A DNA stretch of 46,874 nucleotides from an uncultured Methanosarcinales archaeon (GTDB lineage Archaea > Nanobdellota > Nanobdellia > Woesearchaeales > CAYZNE01): contig CAYWRI010000010.1 of assembly GCA_964461035.1 (NCBI GenBank), positions 1-46,874 of the forward strand, read 5' to 3'. Numbering within the stretch: the first letter of the stretch is position 1; each line of letters begins with the position of its first letter. Shown here one piece after another: positions 3,546-45,548 of this stretch. A program made the translations under genes and the position numbers. Under the pieces are notes generated by a model. That model was given only the letters and a program-made list of their open reading frames with translations, had not been told where the DNA came from and did not search any database.

Positions 3546-3594
3546 TGCTTTTCTAACATAACCTTTTTAAAATGTATAGTTAATCTCAATTATT

Positions 3595-4005
3595 ATGAAT
3601 AAATTATATAGTTTAGAACTTAATAAAGATAATGCGAATAAAGAGATTACCAAAAAGAAAGTTTTAGGATTATATGAATTTGTGAAAATTAATGGTAAAA
3701 AAGTTCTTGCAAGAATAGATTCAGGTGCAGTTAAGAGTTCAATAGATATTGAACTTGCAGCAGAATTGAGCTTAGGGCCAATAATTGGTTCCAGAATAAT
3801 AAGAAATGCTCATGGAACAACGCACAGATCTTTAGTTGAAGTAGATATTGAATTATGTAGAAAAAAAGTAAAAGCTAAATTTACTCTTCAAAGTAGAAAA
3901 GAAATGAAATTTAAAGTGTTAATAGGACAAAATGTTCTAATACATAATTTTATTATTGATCCTCAGAAGAATATACTCATAAAGCATAAAAAGGTAAAAA
4001 AATGA
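3595..4005 (+). CDS. RimK-associated retropepsin-like aspartic protease domain protein (the family is annotated as 'ATP-dependent zinc protease')
   Basis: DSGA motif in ARIDSGAVKSSIDIELA. Size is ~136 aa. The stop overlaps the start of the downstream RimK gene (ATGA). This domain is known to be adjacent to rimK. Confidence 0.5.
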   Translation: MNKLYSLELNKDNANKEITKKKVLGLYEFVKINGKKVLARIDSGAVKSSIDIELAAELSLGPIIGSRIIRNAHGTTHRSLVEVDIELCRKKVKAKFTLQSRKEMKFKVLIGQNVLIHNFIIDPQKNILIKHKKVKK

Positions 4006-12918: not shown

Positions 12919-14349
12919 ATGACAGAAGAATATAAAGAAATAGGTGAATTTAGATATGAACTCTTAAAAACAGGAAATATGAAAGTTCCTGGAATAATTT
13001 ATGCTTCAAGTAAATTATTCAAGAAAATGAAGGAAGATAAAACTCTTGAACAAGTAAAAAATGTTGCTTGTCTTCCAGGAATAATAAAATCTAGTATTGC
13101 AATGAGTGATGCACATCAAGGATATGGTTTTAGTATTGGTGGAGTTGCAGCATTTGATGCTGAAACAGGAATAATAACTCCTGGAGGAATAGGATTTGAT
13201 ATAAATTGCGGAGTCCGTCTTCTTACAACCAATTTAACAAGAGAAATTGTTGAACCAAAAATATTAGAATTATTAGATGTAATATACAGAAAAGTTCCTG
13301 TTGGTGTTGGAAAAGATTCTTCTATAAGATTAAATCATGAAGAATTAGATAAAGTCCTAACTGATGGTGTTAAATGGGCTATTTCTCAAGGATTTGGAAC
13401 AGAAGATGATCTTAAAAATTGTGAATCTGAAGGTCAATTAATAGATGCTGATTCTTCTAAAGTTAGTCCTAAGGCCAAAAAAAGAGGTAAAGCTCAACTA
13501 GGAACTCTTGGAGCAGGAAATCATTTTATAGAAATACAAGTTGTTGATAAAATATATGATAAAGAAATTGCTAAAGTTTTTGGTTTTGAAAAAGAAGGAC
13601 AAATTGCGGTAATGATTCATACAGGTTCAAGAGGACTTGGACATCAAGTATGTTCAGATTACTTAAGAAAAATGGAAGATTCATTTCCTGAAATAGTTAA
13701 TAGTTTACCTGAAAAAGATTTAATTTATGCTCCAATAAATTCAGAAATGGGTAAAAATTATTATTCTGCAATGTGTGCCGCAGCTAATTTTGCTTGGTGT
13801 AATAGACATATTATTGGACATGCAGTAAAAGCATCATTCAAAAGAGTATTTGAAAATGTAGAACTGAAAACAGTTTATGATGTAGCACATAATATTGCTA
13901 AAAAAGAAGAACACATTATTGATGGTAAAAAAAGAAAAGTTTGTGTTCATAGAAAAGGTGCTACAAGAGCGTTTCCTGCACAACATCCTGAAGTTCCTGA
14001 ACATTACAAAACTACAGGTCATCCGGTCTTAATTCCTGGAAGTATGGGAACTGCATCCTATGTTCTTGTAGGAACTCAAAAAAGCTTACTTGAAACATTT
14101 GGAAGTTCAGCACATGGTGCTGGAAGACTAATGTCACGACATGCTGCAAGAAAGAGTATTGATGGTGTTGAAGTAAAAAAAGAACTTGAATTAAGAAAAA
14201 TATATGTAAAATCTCCTAGTGCCAAAGGAATAGCTGATGAGGCACCTCAAGTATACAAAGATATTGATGAAGTAATTCGAGTTACTGAAGGTTCAGGTAT
14301 TTGCAGAAAAATTGTAAGATTAATTCCATTAGGTGTTATAAAAGGATAG
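12919..14349 (+). CDS. rtcB: RNA-splicing ligase RtcB (3'-phosphate/5'-OH RNA ligase)
   Basis: Hallmarks GGIGFDINCGVRLL, LGAGNHFIEIQVVD, HTGSRGLGHQV and AHNIA...HRKGATRAF...GSMGTASYVLVG. The size is 476 aa. Confidence 0.9.
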   Translation: MTEEYKEIGEFRYELLKTGNMKVPGIIYASSKLFKKMKEDKTLEQVKNVACLPGIIKSSIAMSDAHQGYGFSIGGVAAFDAETGIITPGGIGFDINCGVRLLTTNLTREIVEPKILELLDVIYRKVPVGVGKDSSIRLNHEELDKVLTDGVKWAISQGFGTEDDLKNCESEGQLIDADSSKVSPKAKKRGKAQLGTLGAGNHFIEIQVVDKIYDKEIAKVFGFEKEGQIAVMIHTGSRGLGHQVCSDYLRKMEDSFPEIVNSLPEKDLIYAPINSEMGKNYYSAMCAAANFAWCNRHIIGHAVKASFKRVFENVELKTVYDVAHNIAKKEEHIIDGKKRKVCVHRKGATRAFPAQHPEVPEHYKTTGHPVLIPGSMGTASYVLVGTQKSLLETFGSSAHGAGRLMSRHAARKSIDGVEVKKELELRKIYVKSPSAKGIADEAPQVYKDIDEVIRVTEGSGICRKIVRLIPLGVIKG

Positions 14350-14402
14350 TGTGTGGTTCTTTTACACGACAAATATATAAAGAGAGTATTTCTTATAATA
14401 AT

Positions 14403-15587
14403 ATGAAAGAAGCAATTCATCCTGGTAAAAGAAAAATCGAAATCAGGTCAAGAATTTCTAATGATTTGAAAACTAGATTGTTAAACACAAAATTCAAAAA
14501 AGAATATCAAGGTAAAGAACTTAATATTTTTGTGGGAAGATTTGGTTATCCTCAAGTAAATGTAGGATTCTTAGGTAATGAACAAGTTGATGAAATATTT
14601 GATTCTCCAAAGCAATGGGTGAAACAAAAATTTGGAATATCAACAATAAGTGCTCTTCGTTCATCATTAATTAATTCAAGATTCAAAACAAACATAAAAG
14701 ATTTTAAAAATAAATTACTTGAACAAGCACAAGAAGTTGCATTAAGTTCAAATGCGGTAGATATGGAAATAAACTTAGAAAAACAACCCAAAAGAATTCT
14801 TTCTTTGCATAAACACAGCATACCCACAGGTCCTGCATCAACAATAAAAAATGTTAAAATAAGCTCTAATCCGAGCATTGATGAAAAAGTTGATTATATA
14901 ACATCTGATACAGATTTAAAAGCAGGAGAAGGAATATTAACACTTTATAAAAAAGGGTTTGATGAATTATTTCTCACAAAAATTTTATCAACAGGAAATC
15001 TTGGTCTTAAATATAATCGAAAAATTGTTCCAACAAGATGGAGTATAACTGCAACAGATGATACCATAGGTAAACAATTAATAACTGAAATAAGTAAGTA
15101 TCCTGCATGTGATATATTTTCAACTTTTGGAGGGCATCTTGGAAATTTTTATATTACCCTTTTTTTTCCTGGTGAATTTTCTTATGAATTATTCGAAATT
15201 GAACCTGATTCGGGAGGTGTGTGGACTGATCACGAAACCAGTTTTGGAAGAAAAACATATGCTTCCAATTGTGTTGGAGGATATTATGCAAATAGGCTAG
15301 CAATACTTGAAAAACTAAAAAAATTAAAAAGAAGTGCTTCAGTTTTAAGTATACGATTCATAACAGATCAATATTATCAACCATTAGGAGTTTGGGTTGT
15401 TAGAGAAGCATCAAGAAAAGCTTTAACGGAAAGAGAAATAAATTTTTATGATAAAAAACTAATGATAAAATATGCTATTGGACTTGCAAAAAAATACTTT
15501 AATTATGATTTAACAGAAATACTTTCTCAAAGTAAACTATTAAAAAGCATAACCTATCAAAAAAGACTTAATGAGTTTTTTAATTGA
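14403..15587 (+). CDS. nreA: NreA-like archaeal DNA-repair protein (Nre_N/Nre_C) with a C-terminal PCNA-interacting (PIP) box
   Basis: ~395 aa. The TRWSITA motif is seen in Nre proteins. The extreme C-terminus QKRLNEFFN fits QxxLxxFF. The ORF track starts at 14301, overlapping rtcB; the ATG at 14403 is preferred. Confidence 0.5.
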   Translation: MKEAIHPGKRKIEIRSRISNDLKTRLLNTKFKKEYQGKELNIFVGRFGYPQVNVGFLGNEQVDEIFDSPKQWVKQKFGISTISALRSSLINSRFKTNIKDFKNKLLEQAQEVALSSNAVDMEINLEKQPKRILSLHKHSIPTGPASTIKNVKISSNPSIDEKVDYITSDTDLKAGEGILTLYKKGFDELFLTKILSTGNLGLKYNRKIVPTRWSITATDDTIGKQLITEISKYPACDIFSTFGGHLGNFYITLFFPGEFSYELFEIEPDSGGVWTDHETSFGRKTYASNCVGGYYANRLAILEKLKKLKRSASVLSIRFITDQYYQPLGVWVVREASRKALTEREINFYDKKLMIKYAIGLAKKYFNYDLTEILSQSKLLKSITYQKRLNEFFN

Positions 15588-16783: not shown

Positions 16784-17221
16784 TCACAAATCAAGAACAA
16801 CTTGAAGCATAATTTTTTTATCAGGGATACTTGAGAAATTTTCAGTTATAATCATATCATTATAAGTTATACTTTTAATGTTTCCATGAATATCCTTGTA
16901 ATTTGATGCGTGATCACCCATTACCTTACAAGTTAAAAAAAAGCTATTTTCAAAAAATTTAATTTTCAAATCTTTAACATCATGCAAAAGAAATCCTTCG
17001 GTATCAAGTAGAAACAAAAGCTCTTCTAGAAAATCATATAATAATGATTCCTTTTTTTTTGATTTTATATTTATTTTTTTGGTTAAATTTGTTTTAACTT
17101 TTTCTGGTTCAATAAGAAGAGAAAACATTGCAAGTGCAGCATTACAAAATGATATTTCAATATTTGAACCATATGCTCTAAATTTTGCATCGGCAGTATG
17201 ATCAAGAAATTCATAATTCAT
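16784..17221 (-). CDS. Archease (RtcB activator)
   Basis: FLDHTADAKFRAYG is the archease N-terminal signature. The size is 145 aa. Confidence 0.8.
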   Translation of the reverse strand: MNYEFLDHTADAKFRAYGSNIEISFCNAALAMFSLLIEPEKVKTNLTKKINIKSKKKESLLYDFLEELLFLLDTEGFLLHDVKDLKIKFFENSFFLTCKVMGDHASNYKDIHGNIKSITYNDMIITENFSSIPDKKIMLQVVLDL

Positions 17222-36273: not shown

Positions 36274-37581
36274 ATGAAATATTCATTTGGTGATAAAATA
36301 AAAATAATAACTAAAAAAGATGAGTGTGTTAAAGGTGTTTTTGTGCCTTCAGAAGATGATTCTTTTATAACTTTGAAATTAGATTCAGGGTATAATCAAA
36401 GTTTTTCAGAATCAAATATTAAATCACATTTATTGATAGAATCTGCAAAACCTAACAAAAAAAAAGAATATCAAATAAAGCAAAATGAAAATTTGCCTTT
36501 AATAAAACTAATACATATTGGTGGAACAATTGCTAGTAAAATTGATTATCAAACAGGCGGTGTAAAAGCTCAAATAAAACCTGAAGAATTATTCCAAGAA
36601 ATTCCTGAACTTACAGACATTTGTAGAATAAAAACTAAAGAATTACTTAATATTTTATCAGAAAATGTGAGATTTGAACATTTTAATATGATCGCTAAAG
36701 AAATATTAAATTCTTTAGAAGATAATATTGCGGGAATAATAATAACACATGGAACTGACACTCTTCATTATACGAGTGCTGCACTATCTTTAATATTACA
36801 AAATCTAAAACTTCCCGTAGTATTAGTTGGAGCACAAAGATCAAGTGATAGACCAAGTAGTGATGCTACATTAAACTTATTGGGGGCAGTAACATTTATT
36901 TTAGATGAAACTACACAAAAAGGATTTTTTGTTTCTATGCATAGTTCAACTAATGATGATAAATGCACAATATTTTCTGGTTTAAATCTAAGAAAAATGC
37001 ATTCTAGTAGAAGAGACGCATTTAGACAAATAAACTCCTTTCCAATTGCAGAAGTTAATGTAAAAGAAAAAAAAATAACATATTTTAGAAAATCTAACTT
37101 AGATTCAGATTTAATAGATTCTTTATTTGAACCTGCTTTTTTTAACAAAAGAATAAAAGTAGGAATACTAAAAGCACATCCCAATTTATTTCCTGAAGAG
37201 ATTTTAAATTTTAAAAACTTTAATGGTTTAATAATAGAAGGAACTGGCTTAGGAAATTTTCCGGTTTCAGATGTTGAAGTAGTAAAAGAAAATAAAGATA
37301 TTTATTCTTCTGTAAAAACATTAGCTGATAAAATCCCAATTATAATGTGTACACAATGCATAAATGGACTTACTGATATGAATGTATACTCTGCAGGTAG
37401 AAAAATGAAAAAATTAGGGGTAATTCAATCAGGAAATATGTCTCCAGAAACAGCATTCATAAAATTAAGCTGGCTTTTATCTAATTTTTCAAAAGAAGAA
37501 ATATTAGAAGTTTGGAATAGAAACTTTGTTGGAGAATGCATAGAAAAAACTCCATATCTAGATTTCACAGAGCGTAATTGA
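36274..37581 (+). CDS. gatD: Glu-tRNA(Gln) amidotransferase subunit D (GatD)
   Basis: Small N-terminal domain followed by an asparaginase-type domain (IHIGGTIASK...HGTDT...). GatE lies directly downstream. Confidence 0.8.
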   Translation: MKYSFGDKIKIITKKDECVKGVFVPSEDDSFITLKLDSGYNQSFSESNIKSHLLIESAKPNKKKEYQIKQNENLPLIKLIHIGGTIASKIDYQTGGVKAQIKPEELFQEIPELTDICRIKTKELLNILSENVRFEHFNMIAKEILNSLEDNIAGIIITHGTDTLHYTSAALSLILQNLKLPVVLVGAQRSSDRPSSDATLNLLGAVTFILDETTQKGFFVSMHSSTNDDKCTIFSGLNLRKMHSSRRDAFRQINSFPIAEVNVKEKKITYFRKSNLDSDLIDSLFEPAFFNKRIKVGILKAHPNLFPEEILNFKNFNGLIIEGTGLGNFPVSDVEVVKENKDIYSSVKTLADKIPIIMCTQCINGLTDMNVYSAGRKMKKLGVIQSGNMSPETAFIKLSWLLSNFSKEEILEVWNRNFVGECIEKTPYLDFTERN

Positions 37582-37582
37582 A

Positions 37583-39454
37583 ATGACATTAAAAGATTTT
37601 AAACAATTAACTAGTATTAATGAAAATATTGATTATTTTGATAAAGGCCTTAAATGTGGTCTAGAAATTCATCAGCAATTGAATACAAATAAATTATTTT
37701 GTAATTGCTCAACTAATTCTAATACGAATGTTAAAAATATAACTTTTGATTATATTGTTAAGAGAAACTTACGAAGTTCTAAAAGCGAACTGGGTCATAT
37801 TGATGCTGCTGCAAAATTTGAAATGAAAAAATCTAAAACTAATTTGTATTATGGTTCACATAAATCAAGTTGTTTAGTTGAACTTGATGAAGAACCACCA
37901 CATTCTCCAAATAAAGATGCATTATTAATTTGTCTTGAAGTAGCAAAATTCTTTGAAATGAATTCTGTTGACAAATTAAGTTTTATGAGAAAAATTGTTG
38001 TTGATGGATCTAACACTACAGGATTTCAAAGAACCGCACTTGTTGCTAAAGCTGGAATTATAGAAGAAAAAAATGTTCGTATTGAATCGCTATGTCTTGA
38101 AGAAGATGCTTGTAAAAAAATTAAAGATTATGTTAAAAAGAATGAATATTATTCAGAATATGATCTTTCTAGATTAGGAATTCCATTGATTGAAATTGCT
38201 ACTGCTCCAGACATAAAAAGTCCCATACAAGCTAAAGAAGTAGCAGAATATATTGGAATGGTTCTTAGAAGTACAGGAAAAGTAAAAAGAGGTATTGGAA
38301 CAATAAGACAGGATGTTAATGTTTCAATAAATGGTGGAGTTAGAGTAGAAATAAAAGGTGCTCAAGAACTCAATATGATTCCAAAGTTAATAATATATGA
38401 AATAATGCGACAACAAAATTTATTGAATATTTATTCAGAATTAAAAAAAATGACAATAATTATTTCTGAACCAGAACAAGTAACAGATATTTTTCTTCAA
38501 ACAAATTCAAAAATACTATCCGCTGCATTATCTGAAAAAAAATCTATTTTTGCAATAAAAATAAGTAATTGTGCTGGATGTTTTGGATTAGAAATACAGC
38601 CAAATAGAAGATTTGGTTCAGAAATTGCAGATCATGTAAAACCCTTTGGAATTAGAGGACTTTTCCATTCTGACGAAAAACTAGCTAAATATGGTTTAAC
38701 TACACAAGAAGTTGATAAATTAAAAACAAGATTACATTGTAATAAAGAAGATGCTTTTATAATTCTTGCAGAAGAAGAAACAAAAGCAAAACTTGCACTT
38801 GAAGAAGTAAAAGAATTTTTATCAAAATTAAAACTTGAAAAAGAAGTTAGACAGGCAAAACCTGATGCAACAAGCACTTTTTTACGACCAATGCCAGGTA
38901 GCGCAAGAATGTATCCTGAAACAGATATTCCAGGAATCGTAATTAACAAAAATTTATTGAAAGCACTACAACCAATAACTTTACTTTCAGAACAATATAA
39001 AGAACTTGAAACTATTGGAATTGAAAAAACATATGCTAAAGAACTTTTAAAACAAGGATTTAATATTAATTTTCTTGTAAAAAAGTATTCTAATTTGAAA
39101 CCCGAATTTATTGCAGAGTTTTTACTAGATTATCCTAAAGAAATAAAAAAAAGAAATAATCTTAATGTTGATATAACTAAATACGTTGATGAAATATTAA
39201 CAAAACTTAATAATAATAGTATAACAAAAGAAGCAGCATTTGGTGTTTTAATATTAAAGGCCCAAGGCAAATCTATTGATTATGCTCAATTTAAAGCTCT
39301 TGATGATGAGTTTGTTAAAAATAGAATAAAAGATATCATTAACAACAATAAAACTGCCCCTGCCAATGCAATAATGGGATTGTGTATGAAAGAATTCAGA
39401 GGCAAAATTGAAGGCAAAAAAGTCAAACAATTTATTGATGCGTTGTTCAATTAG
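37583..39454 (+). CDS. gatE: Glu-tRNA(Gln) amidotransferase subunit E (GatE)
   Basis: GLKCGLEIHQQLNT...LFCNC is the GatB/E-type N-terminus. The size is 623 aa with a C-terminal GatB/YqeY-like tail. It is paired with gatD. Confidence 0.8.
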   Translation: MTLKDFKQLTSINENIDYFDKGLKCGLEIHQQLNTNKLFCNCSTNSNTNVKNITFDYIVKRNLRSSKSELGHIDAAAKFEMKKSKTNLYYGSHKSSCLVELDEEPPHSPNKDALLICLEVAKFFEMNSVDKLSFMRKIVVDGSNTTGFQRTALVAKAGIIEEKNVRIESLCLEEDACKKIKDYVKKNEYYSEYDLSRLGIPLIEIATAPDIKSPIQAKEVAEYIGMVLRSTGKVKRGIGTIRQDVNVSINGGVRVEIKGAQELNMIPKLIIYEIMRQQNLLNIYSELKKMTIIISEPEQVTDIFLQTNSKILSAALSEKKSIFAIKISNCAGCFGLEIQPNRRFGSEIADHVKPFGIRGLFHSDEKLAKYGLTTQEVDKLKTRLHCNKEDAFIILAEEETKAKLALEEVKEFLSKLKLEKEVRQAKPDATSTFLRPMPGSARMYPETDIPGIVINKNLLKALQPITLLSEQYKELETIGIEKTYAKELLKQGFNINFLVKKYSNLKPEFIAEFLLDYPKEIKKRNNLNVDITKYVDEILTKLNNNSITKEAAFGVLILKAQGKSIDYAQFKALDDEFVKNRIKDIINNNKTAPANAIMGLCMKEFRGKIEGKKVKQFIDALFN

Positions 39455-40144
39455 TTATTTAGAACATAAATTTGATAAAGATAATTCATATTTGGAATAT
39501 GTATCATCTATCTCTTTTTTTGTATTTTCAGGGGGATTGTTTGTCATATTTGAAACTATTAAATGTGTTTTTGCTTTAATAAATAAAATATATGCTAATA
39601 CGTTAAAACAATTACCTAAATTAATTATTTCTGTTTTTGAAAGACTTATTTTATTTGTATCAGGATTATTAAATTTTAAATAGGGTAAAAACTTTAGAAT
39701 CAGTTTTTTCCTGGTTGCTAAATTATAAAGGTTTATAGATCTTGTAAGTAAATCATTTGAAGAAAAATCAGAATATTCGGTAATTAAATAATTTACATTA
39801 TCTTCTAATAAATTACTTGTTTCTATTTCTAAATTACTTTCTGTTCTTTTTTCTTGATATTGTAATTCCGTTAAAGCGCAAATAGTTATAGTGTAATCTG
39901 TTTCGGATTGATAAATTTTAAGAATATCATTTAATTTCTGCATTAAATAGTTCTGTGTTTTTTCAAAATCATTGTCTTTAAATATAAATTCTTTATCTTC
40001 AGAATTTAATTTAATTTCACAAATATCTTCCATGCATAATTTTGCGTAATTCTCTTCGTAATTAACCAATATTTTTTTTGCCCAACTAAGGTATATATTT
40101 ACTTTATCTTCTGCATTATTATTAATCATTTTTATCAATTTCAT
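39455..40144 (-). CDS. Hypothetical protein (229 aa)
   Basis: No recognizable motif. It is co-transcribed (4-nt overlap) with 40141..41310. Its 3' end abuts the gatE stop. Confidence 0.35.
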   Translation of the reverse strand: MKLIKMINNNAEDKVNIYLSWAKKILVNYEENYAKLCMEDICEIKLNSEDKEFIFKDNDFEKTQNYLMQKLNDILKIYQSETDYTITICALTELQYQEKRTESNLEIETSNLLEDNVNYLITEYSDFSSNDLLTRSINLYNLATRKKLILKFLPYLKFNNPDTNKISLSKTEIINLGNCFNVLAYILFIKAKTHLIVSNMTNNPPENTKKEIDDTYSKYELSLSNLCSK

Positions 40145-41310
40145 TTTTTTTGAAAATATTCCGAATAAGTAATGTTTGGATTGTCAAAGTTATTATCTAT
40201 AAAAGATTGATATTTATTATATTTTTTGTATAAATCAACTATTGAACTTTGAACATGATTTAATCTGCCTAAAGCATTTAAACCGTTTGTTATATTTTCA
40301 AAATCATGAGTTATAATAGGACCTACGTGATGAATAGTTCGCATTGTAATATAACGTATTTCAGGTATTAAAAAATCTTTATTTCCTTTGCCTAAATTGG
40401 TTATAATATATTTATAAACAAGCTTTATATTTTTCAGCTCAAACTTATACATAAGTTCATAAGATTCTAACCCTATGTTTGTTGAAATTTTATGGAGGGC
40501 GTGAATTTTATGAAGTGAGTCTAAATTGTTTTCATCAAATTTATGAACTAGTTTAGCAATATTATCTTTATAATTAAGATAATTATTATATAAATATCCA
40601 TTTTCTGTTGATTTATTCCGAGAAGCTTGAATTTTTTTAGGAGATTTTTCTTGATTTATTTGAACAAAATATTCTTCACATAAATCAAATACGAATTCAT
40701 AGTTTTCAATATTATTAAAAATATCTTCTTTGTAATACAATTGATTTTTTATCTTTTTAGAAAACGTTTCATTAGAACTTGTTTCTGTTTCATTTTTTTT
40801 AATTTCAAACGCAATATTTATGATATCATATATTGTTTTAGCTAGTACTTCTTCATTTTTAGTGTATAAGTTCCATGCTGTCTCTCCTTGTAAAAAAATA
40901 TGATTTAGTACATCTGATAAAGGTGCGTTTAGCAATCTAATTAATTTTGCATTTCTTTCAGTTAAATATGGTTTTTCTCCAAATCTTTTTTGAAGAAAAA
41001 ATTCAGGTTTAATCTCTTTAGTTTTTATTAATCTATAACGTACCCAGAAACCTCCTCCAGTAGTATCTAAATTAGAATCAAGAGGTTTTTTTAAAGCAGT
41101 TTTCAAGGTATTTAAAACATCATCAAGAGTTTGTATTGATTTAAAATCTGATTTATTATTATGTTTAAAGTCTGAATCAATTTTTTCTGTTAATTTTATA
41201 TATTTATCAAGTAGCCATCCCAACTCTACAGATCTATTCATTAAATTAATATATTGTTGAATTTTTGCAACATTTAATTCAGTGTAATCATAAGTTTTTA
41301 TTAACTCCAT
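40141..41310 (-). CDS. Hypothetical protein (389 aa)
   Basis: No recognizable motif; very AT-rich. It is the first gene of a two-gene operon immediately left of repeat element R1. Confidence 0.35.
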   Translation of the reverse strand: MELIKTYDYTELNVAKIQQYINLMNRSVELGWLLDKYIKLTEKIDSDFKHNNKSDFKSIQTLDDVLNTLKTALKKPLDSNLDTTGGGFWVRYRLIKTKEIKPEFFLQKRFGEKPYLTERNAKLIRLLNAPLSDVLNHIFLQGETAWNLYTKNEEVLAKTIYDIINIAFEIKKNETETSSNETFSKKIKNQLYYKEDIFNNIENYEFVFDLCEEYFVQINQEKSPKKIQASRNKSTENGYLYNNYLNYKDNIAKLVHKFDENNLDSLHKIHALHKISTNIGLESYELMYKFELKNIKLVYKYIITNLGKGNKDFLIPEIRYITMRTIHHVGPIITHDFENITNGLNALGRLNHVQSSIVDLYKKYNKYQSFIDNNFDNPNITYSEYFQKK

Positions 41311-41394
41311 TTTAACTGAAAAGTCTCATTTATTTATAAAAGTTTCATTTAGAATTACTTAAAAGTGATTACAAAATGCATTATTATTTATTTA

Positions 41395-41556
41395 ATCATT
41401 GCTTAAAAGTTTTAGTTCAATATTTTTGATAACATTTTTTATTGATTACTCAACATATTGCTTAGTCAATACATTTATTATACAATAGATTGGTTAATCA
41501 ATAAATAAAATATTTTTTGATAGAATTTTATTGCTAAAAGTTTTAAGCAAAAATCA
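41395..41556. repeat. Palindromic repeat element R1 (terminal inverted repeat tgcttaaaagtttta / aaaagttttaagca). It contains two TTGATTAANCAA-like palindromes. It is homologous to R2 at 46405..46562
   Basis: tgcttaaaagttttagttcaa...ttgattactcaa...ttggttaatcaa...ttgctaaaagttttaagcaaaaa. Confidence 0.6.
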
Positions 41557-41774
41557 TAAGTTTTAATTCTAAATTTTTACTTAAAAAAATGATATTACTA
41601 AAATAATTTAAAATAATTTAAATTTCTTAAGATATGGTTTTAGATTTTTCTCTCGACGAAAAAAATATTATTAAATAATTAAGATCATCCAATAAACCAA
41701 TTTTAGTATTGATTAATCGATAGATTTAAATATGAGTTTATCTCAATCACATTGAGTGAGTTATCAAATGAAAA

Positions 41775-42104
41775 ATGAAAAAGAAAAAAGAAAATAAATC
41801 TGAAGAAAAAGGACCATTAATAGAATTTAAAGGATTTTTAACATTATTCATACTTCATGAATTATCTAAGAAAGCTCAATGTGGTGACGAATTAGCCGTA
41901 AGAATTGGTCGACGAAAAAAAGATAAATTAACTCCTGGAACAATATATCCAACTCTTAAAAGATTAAGAAAATTAAAACTAATAAATTTCAAAAGATTTG
42001 GAAGAAAAAAAGTATATACTTTAACAGAATTGGGTAAAAATGAGCTAAAAAAATTATATTTAGTGATAAAACATTACTTTAAAGGTTTAAAAAGCAAAAT
42101 TTAA
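41775..42104 (+). CDS. PadR-family transcriptional regulator
   Basis: LTPGTIYPTLKRLRKLKLI...YTLTELGKNEL is the canonical PadR winged HTH. Confidence 0.75.
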   Translation: MKKKKENKSEEKGPLIEFKGFLTLFILHELSKKAQCGDELAVRIGRRKKDKLTPGTIYPTLKRLRKLKLINFKRFGRKKVYTLTELGKNELKKLYLVIKHYFKGLKSKI

Positions 42105-42121
42105 CTTAACAAAAATTAAAA

Positions 42122-43156
42122 ATGGCAATAACTAAAAAAAATCTTGGTAAAAAAACAGAAGCTCAAACAGGAAAATTAGAGAAAAAAGATTACAAAGAAA
42201 TTCTTAAAGAAATAAATTCATATAATAAAAATAGAAAAATCCTTCAAAAAAAGTTTAATCTTAAAAATTTAAAAAAAGTTTATCTAAAACATATGAAAAA
42301 ACCTGAATCGTTAGAATCAGCGTTAGTAAAATTTGAATCAAATTTTTTTAGTCATTTAAAATTATTTGTCCAATATTATCATAATTTAGTACAAAATATT
42401 GAACAAGAAATTGGTGCGGAAGATAATGTTCAAGTTAGAATTCTTAATTATTTTCATAATTTATTATTAAGAGCTGGTTCACAAAGTAGAAAAATAAGAG
42501 TTCCTGATAAAGACGTTTTGATTGAATTTGAAAAAGAATTCCGAAAATCATTAAATAAGCAACTTAAGGAAATCAAAATTGATGAAAAAAAGATTAAAGA
42601 AGAAGTAAAAGGTAAAATAAGTGAAGTTATTCATGGAAAACCCGTTGCATTAATGAGAAAAGTTCATGGTAAATTTGTGATGCTTAGTGATGAGGAAGAG
42701 AAACTTGAAAACGAAATAAAAGAAGTGACTGATACTATTGATGAAAATCCGTTATTATTTATTCCAAGATTTCTAAAGGTCGCAGATAATTATCCTAATG
42801 TTATAAAAAATATTAAAATTATAATAGAAGATATTCATCTTCTTGAAAGAGATCTTTTAATAAATTTCAAAGAAGAAATGCGTCAAATGGGTGCAATATT
42901 TGATCTTTTAACACAATATGGTTGGAAAAAAGGACAATCCGACTTTGATTCAATAAAAGAAGAATATAAAAAAATTATGGATTTAGAAAAAAAAGAAAGT
43001 ATTACTGAATACAAAATGGATGAGAGAATTAAAAATATGGTTCTTTTTGATGAAAAAGTATTTAATGATATGATGAGATATTTATATGAAACTGCAGATA
43101 GATTTGAACGAGTTCAAAAACAAAAAGGAAGAAATACTTTAGATTTAGCTACTTAA
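42122..43156 (+). CDS. K/E-rich helical hypothetical protein (344 aa), co-transcribed with the PadR gene
   Basis: The gap to the PadR gene is 17 nt. No recognizable domain. Confidence 0.35.
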   Translation: MAITKKNLGKKTEAQTGKLEKKDYKEILKEINSYNKNRKILQKKFNLKNLKKVYLKHMKKPESLESALVKFESNFFSHLKLFVQYYHNLVQNIEQEIGAEDNVQVRILNYFHNLLLRAGSQSRKIRVPDKDVLIEFEKEFRKSLNKQLKEIKIDEKKIKEEVKGKISEVIHGKPVALMRKVHGKFVMLSDEEEKLENEIKEVTDTIDENPLLFIPRFLKVADNYPNVIKNIKIIIEDIHLLERDLLINFKEEMRQMGAIFDLLTQYGWKKGQSDFDSIKEEYKKIMDLEKKESITEYKMDERIKNMVLFDEKVFNDMMRYLYETADRFERVQKQKGRNTLDLAT

Positions 43157-43690
43157 TTATCTAAGTACAAACCATTCTCGAATTAAATCATTAGTTGTTT
43201 TTAAACTATTTAATTTATCTGATTTGGTTTGTAATTCTATTGGATTTTTTGAATAATAAGGTAAATTCAATTGTTGTGCTAAATAAAATGCTTCAGAATC
43301 AGAACTTGAATAAATTAAAACTTGAGCATTATTTTTTTTAATATGTTTTCCATGATATGGTATTAATTCATTAATATAAAATGGGAGAAAACAAGAGTCA
43401 ATTCCTGTAGATGTTGCTAAAATCTTTATTTCAGCAGAATTTAAACAGGAAGATTGTTCTTTATATTTATTTAATTTGTTTGTTAATTCGGTTTTTCTTT
43501 GATTTGAAATTTCAAAAGGAAAATCTGCATCCAAAATATAAATATCAAATCCATCAGTATTTTCTATAATTTGTTGACCATTTTTATAATCAAAAGCAAA
43601 AGTAACATTTTCTATTTGATTTAACTGAACAAGTGTATCAAGTAATTCTGTATTTCTATAATGTAAATCATCAAGCCAAAATATTTTCAT
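43157..43690 (-). CDS. CheY-like receiver (REC) domain protein with a ~60-aa C-terminal extension
   Basis: MKIFWLDD is an acidic pair. IYILDADFP is a phospho-acceptor Asp candidate. KILATSTG is the T/S position. HGKHIKK is the conserved-Lys position. Confidence 0.45.
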   Translation of the reverse strand: MKIFWLDDLHYRNTELLDTLVQLNQIENVTFAFDYKNGQQIIENTDGFDIYILDADFPFEISNQRKTELTNKLNKYKEQSSCLNSAEIKILATSTGIDSCFLPFYINELIPYHGKHIKKNNAQVLIYSSSDSEAFYLAQQLNLPYYSKNPIELQTKSDKLNSLKTTNDLIREWFVLR

Positions 43691-43815
43691 AAAGATTACT
43701 TTTCACTAATATTGTTTTTTAACTAAAAAACCCTGTCTTTTTAGTACAAATATCATATTTTATTGAGTTTTCATTCTTTATTTTTAAAGAAATCTATTCT
43801 GTTTCAGAAAAACTA

Positions 43816-43835
43816 CGCATAATGTTGATTATGCG
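43816..43835. promoter_or_regulatory. Perfect palindrome CGCATAAT-GTTG-ATTATGCG between the ligase-like and REC genes; a related copy lies at ~45534-45554 in the PIN/recombinase divergent region
   Basis: The hairpin is followed on the minus strand by TAGTTTTTCT, so it may also act as a terminator for the ligase-like gene. The second site is cgcataatgtttatatgcaa. Confidence 0.45.
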
Positions 43836-43838
43836 AAG

Positions 43839-44696
43839 TTAAATAAGGAAATTTTCTTTTTCAAAAAATAAAGGCATAACTTCCGTTCTAATATAACTAG
43901 CTTTACGATTCAAAATAGATCTTAACTTAGCCGTTTCTGATTTAGATAATTTTGTTTCATTAAGAACATCTTCAATAGTTCTTTCAATAATTGAATGTGG
44001 TGTAAAATTTCCATTTAAATGTGAAATTGAATTTTGTCCAACTTTAATCAATCTTCTTTTAGTAACATATTTTTCGACACCTTTCTTTTTAGAATCAGTT
44101 TCGACAAAATCAGAATGATAAATTTTACTGAATCTTAATCCATTTTGAAATTCATCAGAATATTGATGAACTACAACCCCTTCAGGAACTCCTGAATATA
44201 ATTTACTTTTTTCTAGAGCTTCTTCAATTATTAATGGATTAACCTTGCCCTCAGATAATAATGGAATAGATTTAATCTTTTTATCCAACCCCATTAATTC
44301 TATCCAATATTGAGATTCTTTAGGATGTAAAAATTTAGATTTACTTTGATCATATATTCCAATCATAAAAAATTTATTAAGATTTTCTTCATCATATAGA
44401 ATATGACCATATCCTTTATGTGTAAATTCTCCAAAAATAATAAAATCTTTAGGTAAATCAAAAATTTCTGGATTTAAATAATCATATAAAAATCTCCTAA
44501 ATTGATCAAAATAATATTTTTTAGAATTACCTATGGGTGCACCTCTACTCCAACCAGCAATATGGTTCATGTTTTTCCTTATCGAAACATTAGCACCATC
44601 AACTTTTTCAAATACATAAACACCTTTATCGATAATGGTTTCATTGCAATAAGGTTCTTTTATTGAGGGAAATTTGAAATTACTCATTTGTATCAC
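43839..44696 (-). CDS. Covalent nucleotidyltransferase of the RNA/DNA-ligase superfamily, minimal RNA-ligase-like (285 aa, no OB domain)
   Basis: Motif I is VFEKVDGANVSIR (KxDG). Motif III is FIIFGEF. Motif IV is PEGVVVHQ. A motif-V-like RFSKIYH is present. The start overlaps the end of the PIN gene. Confidence 0.45.
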   Translation of the reverse strand: MIQMSNFKFPSIKEPYCNETIIDKGVYVFEKVDGANVSIRKNMNHIAGWSRGAPIGNSKKYYFDQFRRFLYDYLNPEIFDLPKDFIIFGEFTHKGYGHILYDEENLNKFFMIGIYDQSKSKFLHPKESQYWIELMGLDKKIKSIPLLSEGKVNPLIIEEALEKSKLYSGVPEGVVVHQYSDEFQNGLRFSKIYHSDFVETDSKKKGVEKYVTKRRLIKVGQNSISHLNGNFTPHSIIERTIEDVLNETKLSKSETAKLRSILNRKASYIRTEVMPLFFEKENFLI

Positions 44697-45435
44697 AACT
44701 TAAATCATATTTTCTCACATTTATAGGATTAACATATTCTTTTAAATGTGCAAATTCAGGCTCTCTAGATAGTGCATTTAATGTTTTGTAAATATGTGCA
44801 TCAGATGATAAAATAGCAATTTTATAGGTTTCTTTTAACAATTTATGCAAACCATTTTTCTCATTTAATTTAAATTTATGCGCTGAAAAATTTGCAATAG
44901 TTAATGCAATTTTAATTAAATCTAAATCAGGAGTAGAAATAATGTCTAAAACAAATTTTTTATTTGATAAATTACATTTATTCGAATGCAAAAACCAATT
45001 AGCGAGATACAATTTTGAATCTAAATCGGAAGGTGAACTTTTAAGAATTCCTTCTCCAAAATTTGTTTCATACGTTTTGTTTGCATCTTTAACATATGAC
45101 TTGACATCTTCAGGTATACCTTTCGAAGAAGCTACTAATAAATCATAAGTTTTTTCAGAAATTTCAGGAGTTCCAGAAATATGACAATTTTTATGGTTTT
45201 CTATTTCTCTCATTATTTTATCAGGAATAACTAAATTTGAGTTACTTAGTAAAGAATTTAATTTATGCACAAATTCATTACCTCTTTTATAACCAAAATT
45301 AATCTGTTTTCTAGTAGCTAATTCTAAATCAATAATTGCACAAGTATCTAATATGATTAATGGTTTCATTCCCAATGAGGCTGAACCATTAAAATAAGAT
45401 TTCATATACGCATAAATATTGGGGCGACCATACAT
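44680..45435 (-). CDS. PIN-domain nuclease (251 aa)
   Basis: MKPLIILDTCAIIDLELA is the VapC/PIN-type N-terminal strand with the first catalytic Asp. Downstream acidic residues are present. It is larger than a canonical VapC. Confidence 0.5.
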   Translation of the reverse strand: MYGRPNIYAYMKSYFNGSASLGMKPLIILDTCAIIDLELATRKQINFGYKRGNEFVHKLNSLLSNSNLVIPDKIMREIENHKNCHISGTPEISEKTYDLLVASSKGIPEDVKSYVKDANKTYETNFGEGILKSSPSDLDSKLYLANWFLHSNKCNLSNKKFVLDIISTPDLDLIKIALTIANFSAHKFKLNEKNGLHKLLKETYKIAILSSDAHIYKTLNALSREPEFAHLKEYVNPINVRKYDLSCDTNE

Positions 45436-45548
45436 ATTAATAAGGATATATTTAATATTTATAAAGTTTTCTATAAATAATTACTTAAAAGTGGTAAGTG
45501 AAATAATATTAGACAATCTTTATAAAGAAAGCTTCGCATAATGTTTAT

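Follow-up and report, generated by a model that had tools for sequence, protein, structure and literature searches.

A conserved two-gene operon encoding a predicted PIN-like nuclease and a compact RNA ligase in DPANN-type archaea

We analyzed a stretch of archaeal DNA of 46,874 nucleotides (hereafter, the window) and identified two overlapping minus-strand genes, of which the first encodes a probable metal-dependent PIN-like endonuclease and the second a protein assigned from its sequence to the compact ATP-dependent RNA ligases. As judged by comparison with related loci, the two genes are an operon vertically inherited in DPANN-type archaea. Our preferred reading, to which we give about an even chance, is that the pair represents a DPANN-type cut-and-join operon with a housekeeping role on stable RNAs. 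The features of the region are as follows.

44680-45435, minus strand: leading gene of the operon, predicted to encode a PIN-like metallonuclease of 251 aa
43839-44687, minus strand: predicted gene for an ATP-dependent RNA ligase (282 aa when translated from the ATG at 44687), with a nucleotidyltransferase domain and a helical domain at the C terminus (about 80 aa)
43157-43690, minus strand: 177-aa orphan ORF, weakly receiver-like, adjacent to the conserved pair and outside it
45456-45471, minus strand: archaeal BRE/TATA-like element, GAAAAC TTTATAAATA, read from the sequence
45549-46385, plus strand: xerA, tyrosine recombinase (NF040815, Pfam), divergent from the operon
43812-43839, no strand: palindrome ACTACGCATAA-TGTTGA-TTATGCGAAGT, dif-like (11+6+11), abutting the ligase stop codon
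45531-45557, no strand: further copy of the dif-like site in degenerate form, GCTTCGCATAA-TGTTT-ATATGCAAATC, from a repeat search and site scan

The original prediction had described three co-directional minus-strand ORFs, and these are present at 44680-45435, 43839-44696 and 43157-43690. The second of them has 285 aa if it is read from the GTG at 44696; the ATG at 44687 is the start in the database entry and in the homologues. The PIN-like gene was said to end inside the ligase ORF, and an overlap of 8 nt was indeed seen in the window (ATGAGTAA), with translational coupling of the ligase gene to the PIN-like gene being supported. The BRE/TATA-like element presumably serves as the promoter of the operon, and since it precedes the ATG of the PIN-like gene by approximately 25 nt, the transcript would be leaderless or have a short leader. 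The block AAAACTTTATAAATATTAAATATATC is near-identical in L008, whereas the proteins share only 63-70% identity.

We further examined the ligase. The protein matched PF09414 with 54.7 bits (cutoff 27; E=1.7e-14) and the RNA ligase group phrog_548 at 1.3e-14. The full set of nucleotidyltransferase motifs claimed for it, including the KxDG lysine, can be read in the sequence (EKVDGAN, IIFGEF, PEGVVVH and FSKIYH), and the residues E27, K28, D30, G31, F85, G86, E87, E169, G170, K188 and H191 are invariant in eight ligases down to 24% identity. The nucleotidyltransferase domain is followed by the helical tail alone, which bears out the earlier description of a stand-alone ligase that lacks an OB domain. 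By fold, this domain was closest to RNA ligases, ahead of DNA ligases and capping enzymes; the profile searches matched PF09414 and did not assign the protein to a capping enzyme or a DNA-ligase fragment, and the motif I lysine was conserved. Identity with Rnl3 (Pab1020 type) was rejected, given that the TIGR01209 score was 22.5 bits (cutoff 136.9) over residues 18-139 only, that about 25 aa precede motif I and that PF18330 was not matched. The Rnl5 type (NgrRnl/DraRnl) was likewise rejected: motif I lies at residue 28, so there is no space for the N-terminal OB-like domain of Rnl5. The C-terminal helical domain also sets the protein apart from T4 Rnl2, as full-length 2hvq aligned just 12 residues beyond 1s68, which contains only the nucleotidyltransferase domain. 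These features place the second gene product, on the basis of its sequence, among the compact ATP-dependent RNA ligases.

For the first gene product, the PIN-type segment MKPLIILDTCAIIDLE sits at residues 23-38 and not, as first described, at the start of the ORF; the preceding N-terminal extension of 22 aa is conserved. The acidic residues are retained almost without exception across 84 members of the family (D30, 99%; E77, 100%; D170, 100%; D212, 99%), and a loss of the PIN catalytic residues, which would have argued against the assignment, was thus not observed. In the predicted structure, D30 follows the strand 24-29, E77 lies in the helix 72-80 and D212 follows the strand 204-210, in agreement with the PIN-like nuclease superfamily, in which the conserved D-E-D-D set of three to four acidic residues falls where strands end or helices begin. 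Among Pfam matches at E<=0.01 across the 84 members, 16 of 17 were to PIN families (best, PIN_4 at 3.4e-5), the only family kind that recurred, and within the close set PIN_12 was matched in six of nine members and DUF4411 in four of nine. Pfam gathering scores were reached by none of the 84 members, no PIN protein was found among PDB sequences with the protein itself or with the 7- and 84-member profiles, Foldseek gave no match of the model to the PDB below an E of 0.2, and no NCBIfam family recurred in a scan of the 84 members. An hhalign comparison of the 84-member profile with a five-member VapC alignment (from plasmid records) yielded a probability of 1.9%, and in that same alignment E77 was paired with VapC E42 and D170 with VapC D98. 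Identity with HARP was rejected, since PIN_5 (PF08745) was matched by none of the 84 members. The protein is best described as a probable PIN-like, metal-dependent endonuclease whose active site is of the D-E-D-D type. Its family is uncharacterised, comprises roughly 119 clusters at the 50% identity level and has a clear predicted active site. A metagenome scan with the alignment of this family recovered the window's own sequence and one locus already in the set, and nothing else.

The two genes were found together wherever both could be assessed. In 11 of 11 assessable archaeal lineages (window/L018, which are the same sequence; L007/8; L001-6/13/19; L009-11/14; L012; L020; L021; L022; L024; L025; L026), the PIN-like gene lies directly 5' of the ligase gene, with a junction that ranges from the 8-nt overlap to a 6-nt gap, and the pairing is kept down to 21-25% identity. 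The relatives carrying the pair are labelled Woesearchaeota or Nanoarchaeota. The two proteins co-diverge: a Mantel test gave r=0.82, a value reached in 5 of 5000 permutations. At each locus the pair is single-copy and embedded in conserved synteny with translation genes, within very small genomes; its neighbors across lineages include GatD/GatE, ribosomal protein S10, EF-1alpha, ThrRS, ProRS and XerA. Outside this group, no member of the PIN-like family was found within about 4 kb of related PF09414 ligases at 27 viral and 2 bacterial loci, and compared with the nick-sealing RNA ligases T4 Rnl2, Naegleria NgrRnl (Rnl5) and kinetoplastid REL1, which share PF09414, only the archaeal clade has an obligate PIN-like partner. 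None of the outcomes that the original prediction had named as speaking against it was encountered, including the last of them, absence of the gene pairing everywhere else.

PIN-type metallonucleases leave 3'-OH and 5'-phosphate ends. In the mechanism that we propose, the PIN-like nuclease would cut RNA as a metal-dependent endonuclease, and the ligase would adenylate Lys28 and join 3'-OH and 5'-phosphate ends. Because these are the ends that a PIN-type cut would produce, the ligase could reseal or circularize the nuclease products without an end-healing enzyme. RtcB and Archease, which are encoded separately from the pair in the same window, handle a different end chemistry, in which RtcB joins a 3'-phosphate or 2',3'-cyclic phosphate to a 5'-OH. 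RtcB/Archease and Pnkp/Hen1 resemble the pair as RNA end-joining machinery encoded by gene pairs, but Pnkp heals the ends prior to ligation and neither system encodes a nuclease. The operon may then carry out housekeeping cut-and-join reactions on stable RNAs, in which precursors of tRNA, rRNA or small RNAs would be trimmed and subsequently circularized or resealed. The analysis establishes directly how the genes are organized, to which family and fold the ligase belongs, that catalytic residues are retained in both proteins, and that the two are obligately paired and co-diverge; we infer RNA as the substrate, the action of both enzymes on the same molecule and this biological role. A search of Rfam around the operon at a permissive threshold returned a chance-level snoRNA match alone (E=0.62). 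A bolder version, which we put forward tentatively and consider rather less probable, is that the pair constitutes a protein-only, DPANN-specific RNA cut-and-join machine and a second, RtcB-independent ligation pathway by which particular stable RNAs (tRNA, rRNA or C/D-box-type precursors) would be excised and then recircularized or rejoined; it might also stand in for an absent 5'-processing activity, such as RNase P, in these reduced genomes.

In an alternative to which we assign a low probability, the pair would maintain DNA or RNA:DNA hybrids: the PIN-like protein would be a nuclease of the FEN/5'-nuclease type that removes flaps or primers, and the Rnl2-like ligase would seal the resulting nick, with RNA as the 3'-OH strand.

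A further comparison is with VapBC, with which the pair shares a PIN-type D-E-D-D nuclease, an LDT motif past strand 1 and a tightly coupled two-gene organization. The pair might be a toxin-antidote or defence module, in which the PIN-like protein would act as an RNase toxin in the manner of VapC and the ligase, as an antitoxin of the repair type or an immunity factor, would reverse the damage; we regard this as unlikely. In its favor, about one-fifth of PIN proteins are toxins of toxin-antitoxin systems, and conflict systems combining a nuclease with a ligase have been proposed (PMC5499597); a toxin-antitoxin idea has also been raised for HARP-Rnl3 (PMC12153264). The tight coupling of the two genes, and the location of the pair, flanked by two dif-like sites and next to a region that is variable and rich in orphans, point in the same direction. 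However, VapBC pairs a nuclease with a DNA-binding VapB-type antitoxin, whereas here an enzyme takes the place of the antitoxin and its gene follows that of the nuclease. Neither a DNA-binding antitoxin nor an autoregulatory HTH gene is present; the divergent xerA lies upstream and the ligase downstream, with no small ORF between them. The nuclease, roughly double the size of VapC, contains a helical insert of some 100 aa, and the pair occupies conserved chromosomal synteny. No PADLOC model was matched by either protein. The single-copy state at every locus, the synteny with translation genes, the very small genomes, the vertical co-divergence of the two genes and the lack of the PIN-like family on viral contigs with related ligases all argue against such a module, as does the Rnl3 knockout in Thermococcus, which showed no growth defect (PMC12153264). 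We thus found no positive evidence for the toxin/antitoxin-like character suggested by the original prediction, and the housekeeping cut-and-join reading remains the one that we prefer.

The third ORF had been presented as a CheY-like receiver protein belonging to the module. Under that three-gene model, the nuclease and ligase would be controlled by the adjacent receiver. The 177-aa ORF is co-directional with the pair and begins only 148 nt downstream, and it has receiver-like residues (D7-D8, D54 and T92/S93) together with a weak match to the receiver 6ont in a PDB phmmer search (E=0.012), the SLN1 receiver following at E=0.91. However, Pfam Response_reg was not matched at E<=1, and Leu occupies the position of the conserved Lys. 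A search of 5.8 billion proteins returned no homologue other than the ORF itself, and tblastn against the related loci matched only L018, which is the same sequence. The ORF is absent from the closest relative (L007/L008) and from all 10 other lineages, which largely refutes the three-gene model, and a palindrome with a T5 tract separates it from the pair. We consider control by this protein highly improbable; by sequence, the ORF is an addition specific to this lineage and no part of the module.

Upstream of the operon, the divergent recombinase gene matched NCBIfam NF040815 (recomb_XerA_Arch) with 272 bits against a cutoff of 220 and Pfam Phage_integrase at 8e-48. XerA is the archaeal recombinase for chromosome dimer resolution. 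The gene neighbors the pair in L001-L006 and L008 as well, and the order xerA, PIN-like, ligase, PadR, GatE, GatD is common to the window and L007/L008. The remaining genes of the window are those of an ordinary archaeal chromosome (EF-1alpha, GatD/E, RtcB, Archease and 5S rRNA), and the GC content of the region (0.22-0.25, versus 0.23-0.33 elsewhere in the window) reveals no compositional break. The recombinase-bearing island of the original prediction was accordingly not seen: a genomic island or integrated mobile element was rejected on the uniform GC content, the XerA equivalog and the gene order conserved in relatives.

The hairpin reported after the ligase gene does exist. It has a perfect 8-bp stem, a 4-nt loop and a T5 tail immediately after the stop codon (dG -13.2, z -4.1), and it may act as a transcription terminator. 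The palindrome is, in addition, best read as a dif-like site of XerA, with arms that are complementary at 10 of 11 positions around a 6-bp spacer; two 11-bp inverted arms and a 6-bp spacer are the architecture defined for dif (PMC2958812). It was the sole site with <=1 mismatch in a scan of the 46.9-kb window. In L008 the site (GATTCGCATAA-TGTATA-TTATGCGAAGT) lies 145 nt past the ligase stop, with the arms kept and the spacer altered, and stays conserved amid otherwise diverged intergenic DNA. The window and L008 sites share 20 and 23 positions, respectively, with the 28-mer of E. coli dif, a single-copy sequence in 5130 of 5426 E. coli genomes. The proximity of site and recombinase resembles the linked xerS-difSL module (PMC2958812; PMC5357621), whereas the dif sites of Thermococcales are not adjacent to xerA (PMC2958812); here the site lies within 1.7 kb of the gene. 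The window flags a likely DPANN dif site beside xerA. A point of difference from these Xer/dif systems is the degenerate second copy, which is in direct orientation, carries two mismatches and a 5-nt spacer, and overlaps the xerA start codon; the half-site TTATGCGAAGT is kept at the xerA start in L008.

The full and degenerate sites lie 1.72 kb apart and therefore bracket exactly the PIN-like and ligase genes in the window. This arrangement, with a weaker form of the two-site bracket in L008, raises the question of whether the pair is, or was, a cassette mobilized by Xer (of the IMEX or dif-module type) at a chromosomal dif beside xerA. This explanation concerns history only and is compatible with any function. 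It appears improbable: L009, L020, L021 and L024 have the pair without an adjacent xerA or recognizable sites, the divergence of the pair tracks lineage, and the second site may instead be an autoregulatory operator of XerA, as in xerS/difSL (PMC5357621).

The closest known parallel to the proposed cut-and-join operon is HARP-Rnl3, for which processing and circularization have been proposed as the role (PMC12153264; PMC5499597). Both are archaeal genetic linkages of a small PIN-superfamily metallonuclease (about 200-250 aa) and an ATP-dependent RNA ligase of the KxDG type, with compatible ends (5'-P, 3'-OH). Under our preferred reading, the pair would be the counterpart of HARP-Rnl3 in DPANN archaea. 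The components differ, as the DPANN-type nuclease is not of the PIN_5 family and the ligase is outside TIGR01209 and lacks the N-terminal and dimerization domains of Rnl3. The arrangement and taxa also differ: the DPANN-type genes invariably run in the same direction and overlap or abut, whereas HARP-Rnl3 pairs, found in halophiles, methanogens, Thermococcales and Aquificales, are co-localized in only about one-third of the archaeal cases, with a mostly divergent orientation. The earlier view that the combination was undescribed was overstated, because HARP (PIN_5) nucleases and Rnl3 (TIGR01209) RNA ligases were noted to co-occur and co-localize in 2017 (PMC5499597), and their association was analyzed in 2025 (PMC12153264). 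In the literature covered on DPANN, RNA ligases and PIN domains, and on PF09414, the present pair was not described; the likeliest earlier source, Burroughs & Aravind 2016 (NAR 44:8525), lies outside that coverage.

The reason for the genetic tie between PIN-type nucleases, among them the protein-only RNase P HARP, and ATP-dependent RNA ligases is an open question (PMC12153264). The HARP-Rnl3 linkage is statistical and mostly not operonic, whereas the DPANN-type pair is a strictly conserved overlapping operon built from a PIN-like family unrelated by sequence to HARP and from a different clade of minimal RNA ligases. The existence of such a separate, conserved and co-diverged operon suggests that the partnership is either a recurrent solution or ancient. 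The pair offers a clean two-protein system for biochemistry on end chemistry, complex formation and circularization. If the bolder version given above is true, the pair would represent the HARP-Rnl3 association in obligately linked form and the best system for finding out what that association is for.

By gene content, the AT-rich window (GC ~27%) reads as ordinary archaeal chromosome, with genes for EF-1alpha, GatD/GatE, RtcB, Archease, Nre, NFACT, RsmB, 5S rRNA and tRNA-Pro. Apart from small corrections, the raw observations of the original prediction stand, namely three minus-strand ORFs, an overlap and a hairpin:

44680-45435, minus strand: PIN-like ORF, 251 aa
43839-44696, minus strand: ligase ORF, 285 aa counted from GTG
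43157-43690, minus strand: receiver-like ORF, 177 aa

Translation of the public ligase protein, as of every homologue, begins at the ATG at 44687 (282 aa), and the overlap with the PIN-like ORF is 8 nt (ATGAGTAA). The ligase stop is immediately followed by a hairpin whose stem is a perfect 8 bp; its loop has 4 nt and a T5 tract trails it (dG -13.2 kcal/mol, z = -4.1). The VapC/PIN-type motif expected at the start of the first ORF is present but occupies residues 23-38 and is preceded by a conserved extension of 22 aa. The ~45 nt 5' of the PIN-like start are almost identical in the window (45436-45480) and in locus L008 of the closest relative (1700-1766), while the flanking intergenic DNA has diverged. 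Within this segment, a BRE/TATA-like element (TTTATAAATA) precedes the PIN-like ATG by ~25 nt; it is a predicted promoter whose conservation is consistent with a single leaderless operon transcript.

The gene pairing is the strongest result of our analysis. At every archaeal locus with either gene and adequate flanks, the PIN-like gene lies immediately 5' of the ligase gene, with junctions ranging from the 8-nt overlap to a 6-nt gap. The pairing thus recurs outside the window and holds in 11 of 11 assessable archaeal lineages at identities down to 21-25%; the relatives carry the source names Woesearchaeota and Nanoarchaeota. Full or near-full pairs came from the window (same sequence as L018) and from related loci L007/L008, L001-L006/L013/L019, L009-L011/L014, L012, L020, L021 and L024; in L022, L025 and L026 the ligase is truncated by the contig end, and L023 and L027, whose contigs end too early, were left out of the count. 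Across 8 lineages, pairwise identities of one protein were correlated with those of the other (Mantel r = 0.82, a value reached by 5 of 5000 permutations), which points to joint divergence of the two genes. Related ligases of the Pfam RNA_ligase family (PF09414; 23-31% identity) served as a control, and no PIN-like family member lay within ~4 kb of them on viral (0/27) or bacterial (0/2) contigs. The partnership is a specific trait of this archaeal clade.

The 282-aa ligase matches PF09414 at 54.7 bits (cutoff 27) and a PHROG RNA-ligase family at 1.3e-14, compared with scores of at most 12.2 for DNA ligases and 9.7 for capping enzymes. Across eight ligases with identities down to 24%, E27-K28-x-D30-G31 (motif I), F85-G86-E87 (III), E169-G170 (IV) and K188/H191 (V) are invariant, as are three residues of the C-terminal helical domain, T209, R212 and K215. 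The protein contains no OB domain. The proposed minimal KxDG RNA ligase is thus borne out for family and fold, and the profile scores and the invariant K28 speak against a capping enzyme or a DNA-ligase fragment that has lost its lysine; ligase activity we infer. Assignment to Rnl5 was rejected, as the N-terminal domain would not fit.

Evidence for the nuclease is weaker than for the ligase, yet coherent. The PIN-like protein belongs to no modelled PIN family, and the sole Pfam match of the window protein was a sub-threshold one to PIN_12 (E=0.004). An exhaustive profile search returned 119 cluster representatives at E<=1e-3, almost all of 190-260 aa. Among 84 family members, the only recurrent Pfam families were PIN (PIN_12 nine times, PIN_4 five times, PIN and PIN_8 once each), the best match being PIN_4 at 3.4e-5. 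No single score reached the gathering cutoff, but the clustering of weak matches on one clan is meaningful because only ~0.8 chance matches in total were expected at the threshold used. The acidic residues whose loss would have spoken against a PIN nuclease are retained in these members (D30 99%, E77 100%, D170 100%, D212 99%), along with T31, H81, E91, K160, S167 and H214; in the alignment, the four acidic positions read as the PIN-type D-E-D-D pattern. In the predicted model, D30 comes after strand 1, E77 sits within the helix that follows strand 2, and D212 comes after a later strand, which would place them like PIN catalytic residues. Foldseek with this model, HMM searches of PDB sequences and hhalign against VapC gave nothing informative. 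The 251-aa protein is quite likely, though not proven, to be a PIN-like metallonuclease. One search match, P0037, is a predicted 705-aa protein of ~ten near-identical repeats, whose ~67-aa unit corresponds to the profile's E77-H81-E91 stretch (IREAQIYHWNGNIQGGEPSVS); this protein is probably a quirk of assembly or of tandem repetition.

Hydrolysis by PIN-type metallonucleases, among them HARP and PRORP in their RNase P role, yields 5'-phosphate and 3'-OH ends, and ATP-dependent Rnl enzymes seal such ends via lysyl-AMP and then AppRNA intermediates. The operon products are therefore chemically matched and no end-healing enzyme is needed: the PIN-like protein would cut to 5'-phosphate and 3'-OH, and the ligase would rejoin these ends directly. 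The window also encodes the following:

12919-14349: RtcB (Pfam 2.3e-170)
16784-17221: Archease, the RtcB cofactor (Pfam 6.6e-33)

Some 2.4 kb separates these genes; Nre (14301-15587) and a TrmB-family regulator are encoded in between. The organism therefore has canonical 3'-P/5'-OH RNA ligation besides the PF09414 ligase, and end chemistry would be split, RtcB/Archease handling 3'-P/5'-OH and the pair 5'-P/3'-OH.

We propose with moderate confidence that the pair performs a housekeeping cut-and-join step on stable RNA, which would either be trimmed and then circularised, or be resealed. We base this on the pair's tight translational coupling, vertical co-divergence and retention in very small genomes, and on its neighbours, which are recurrently tRNA or translation genes (GatD/E, ThrRS, ProRS, S10, EF-1alpha). 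A toxin-antidote module seems unlikely, and a pair that repairs nicks or flaps in nucleic acids very unlikely. GatD and/or GatE (archaeal Glu-tRNA(Gln) amidotransferase) lie repeatedly at a distance of a few kb or less, the most divergent lineages included:

window 36274-39454: GatD/GatE
L007 3318-6502: GatD/GatE
L021 4609-6105: GatD and/or GatE
L024 693-1943 and 4664-6106: GatD and/or GatE

In L021 and L024, the ligase is directly followed by GatE. This recurrence may reflect no more than synteny, or it may hint at a tRNA-related role.

Two dif-like sites accompany the pair:

43812-43839, plus-strand reading ACTACGCATAA-TGTTGA-TTATGCGAAGT: dif-like site, 11-bp arms (10/11 complementary), 6-bp spacer
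45531-45557: degenerate direct copy, overlapping the xerA start codon

The first is the window's only 11+6+11 site with <=1 mismatch. In L008, its equivalent (3573-3600; GATTCGCATAA-TGTATA-TTATGCGAAGT) sits 145 nt past the ligase stop amid otherwise diverged DNA and keeps the arms with a different spacer, which argues that the palindrome is a candidate site for protein binding and not just a terminator. The E. coli dif 28-mer, present as a single copy in 5130 of 5426 E. coli genomes, is matched by the window site at 20/28 positions and by the L008 site at 23/28. Two 11-bp arms and a 6-bp spacer define dif sites, and archaeal ones were reported to agree with the bacterial consensus at 14-18 of 28 positions (PMC2958812). 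L008 keeps a half-site at the xerA start (~1525-1552), and xerS/difSL is a known case of a recombinase gene beside its own site (PMC5357621). Judged by sequence, the site at 43812-43839 may be this lineage's chromosomal dif, placed beside xerA, and the copy at the xerA start an autoregulatory element or a relic. Together they enclose the PIN-like and ligase genes exactly, as expected of a cassette once mobilised by Xer, a history compatible with the other readings; however, the pair occurs without xerA or such sites in L009, L020, L021 and L024, and we regard this history as an improbable, minority possibility. Directly 3' of the ligase, the more distant lineage L001 (6838-6900) carries three tandem copies of a ~16-nt motif, (T/A)ATTGCATAACAACAG, followed by GCATAACAATAATATGTCTTATG; the motif is similar to the dif-like half-site (TTCGCATAA) and might be that lineage's counterpart. 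In L012 (5200-5385), TATGCGACGCTGGCTT occurs twice, ~146 nt apart, in 590 nt of non-coding DNA 3' of the ligase, one copy adjoining GCGTCGCATAA.

The recombinase is an XerA equivalog, likewise adjacent to the pair in L001-L006 and L008, and the order GatD, GatE, PadR, ligase, PIN-like, XerA is common to the window and L007/L008, so the supposed recombinase-bearing island dissolves into syntenic chromosome. Between GatE and the ligase lies a variable region:

39455-43690: variable stretch of orphan ORFs
41775-42104: conserved PadR regulator, inside that stretch

ORFs of 229, 389 and 344 aa within 39455-43156 have no family assignment, and GC is slightly lower there (0.22-0.23). The L007 equivalent holds different, shorter ORFs (102 and 193 aa), and the 344-aa protein has no tblastn match in it. 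The 177-aa ORF, cast in the original prediction as a CheY-like module member, is an orphan: it has no homologue besides itself in a 5.8-billion-protein collection and no match in any related locus, and the matching space in L007/L008 (3600-3860 in L008), where the ligase is 70% identical, is non-coding. Two PDB matches (E=0.012 and E=0.91) give it a putative receiver-like character; the DD, D and T/S positions are retained, Leu stands in place of the conserved Lys, and Pfam Response_reg gives no match. The ORF immediately adjoins the dif-like site and may represent an insertion peculiar to this lineage, at a hotspot beside dif.

The combination was first thought undescribed, but an association of PIN_5 with TIGR01209 RNA ligases was noted in 2017 (PMC5499597) and analysed as HARP-Rnl3 in 2025, where the same cut-and-join idea was put forward and left as an open question (PMC12153264); it is not categorically new. 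In contrast to HARP-Rnl3, the nuclease here is not PIN_5 (0/84 members match, and HARP membership was rejected), the ligase is not Rnl3 (TIGR01209 22.5 bits, cutoff 136.9), and DPANN-type archaea, the hosts here, are not listed among HARP hosts. Our literature search, whose scope did not extend to Burroughs & Aravind 2016, found no published description of this pair. What is new is an unmodelled PIN-like family and a distinct, compact ligase clade, in obligate operonic linkage in DPANN-type archaea.
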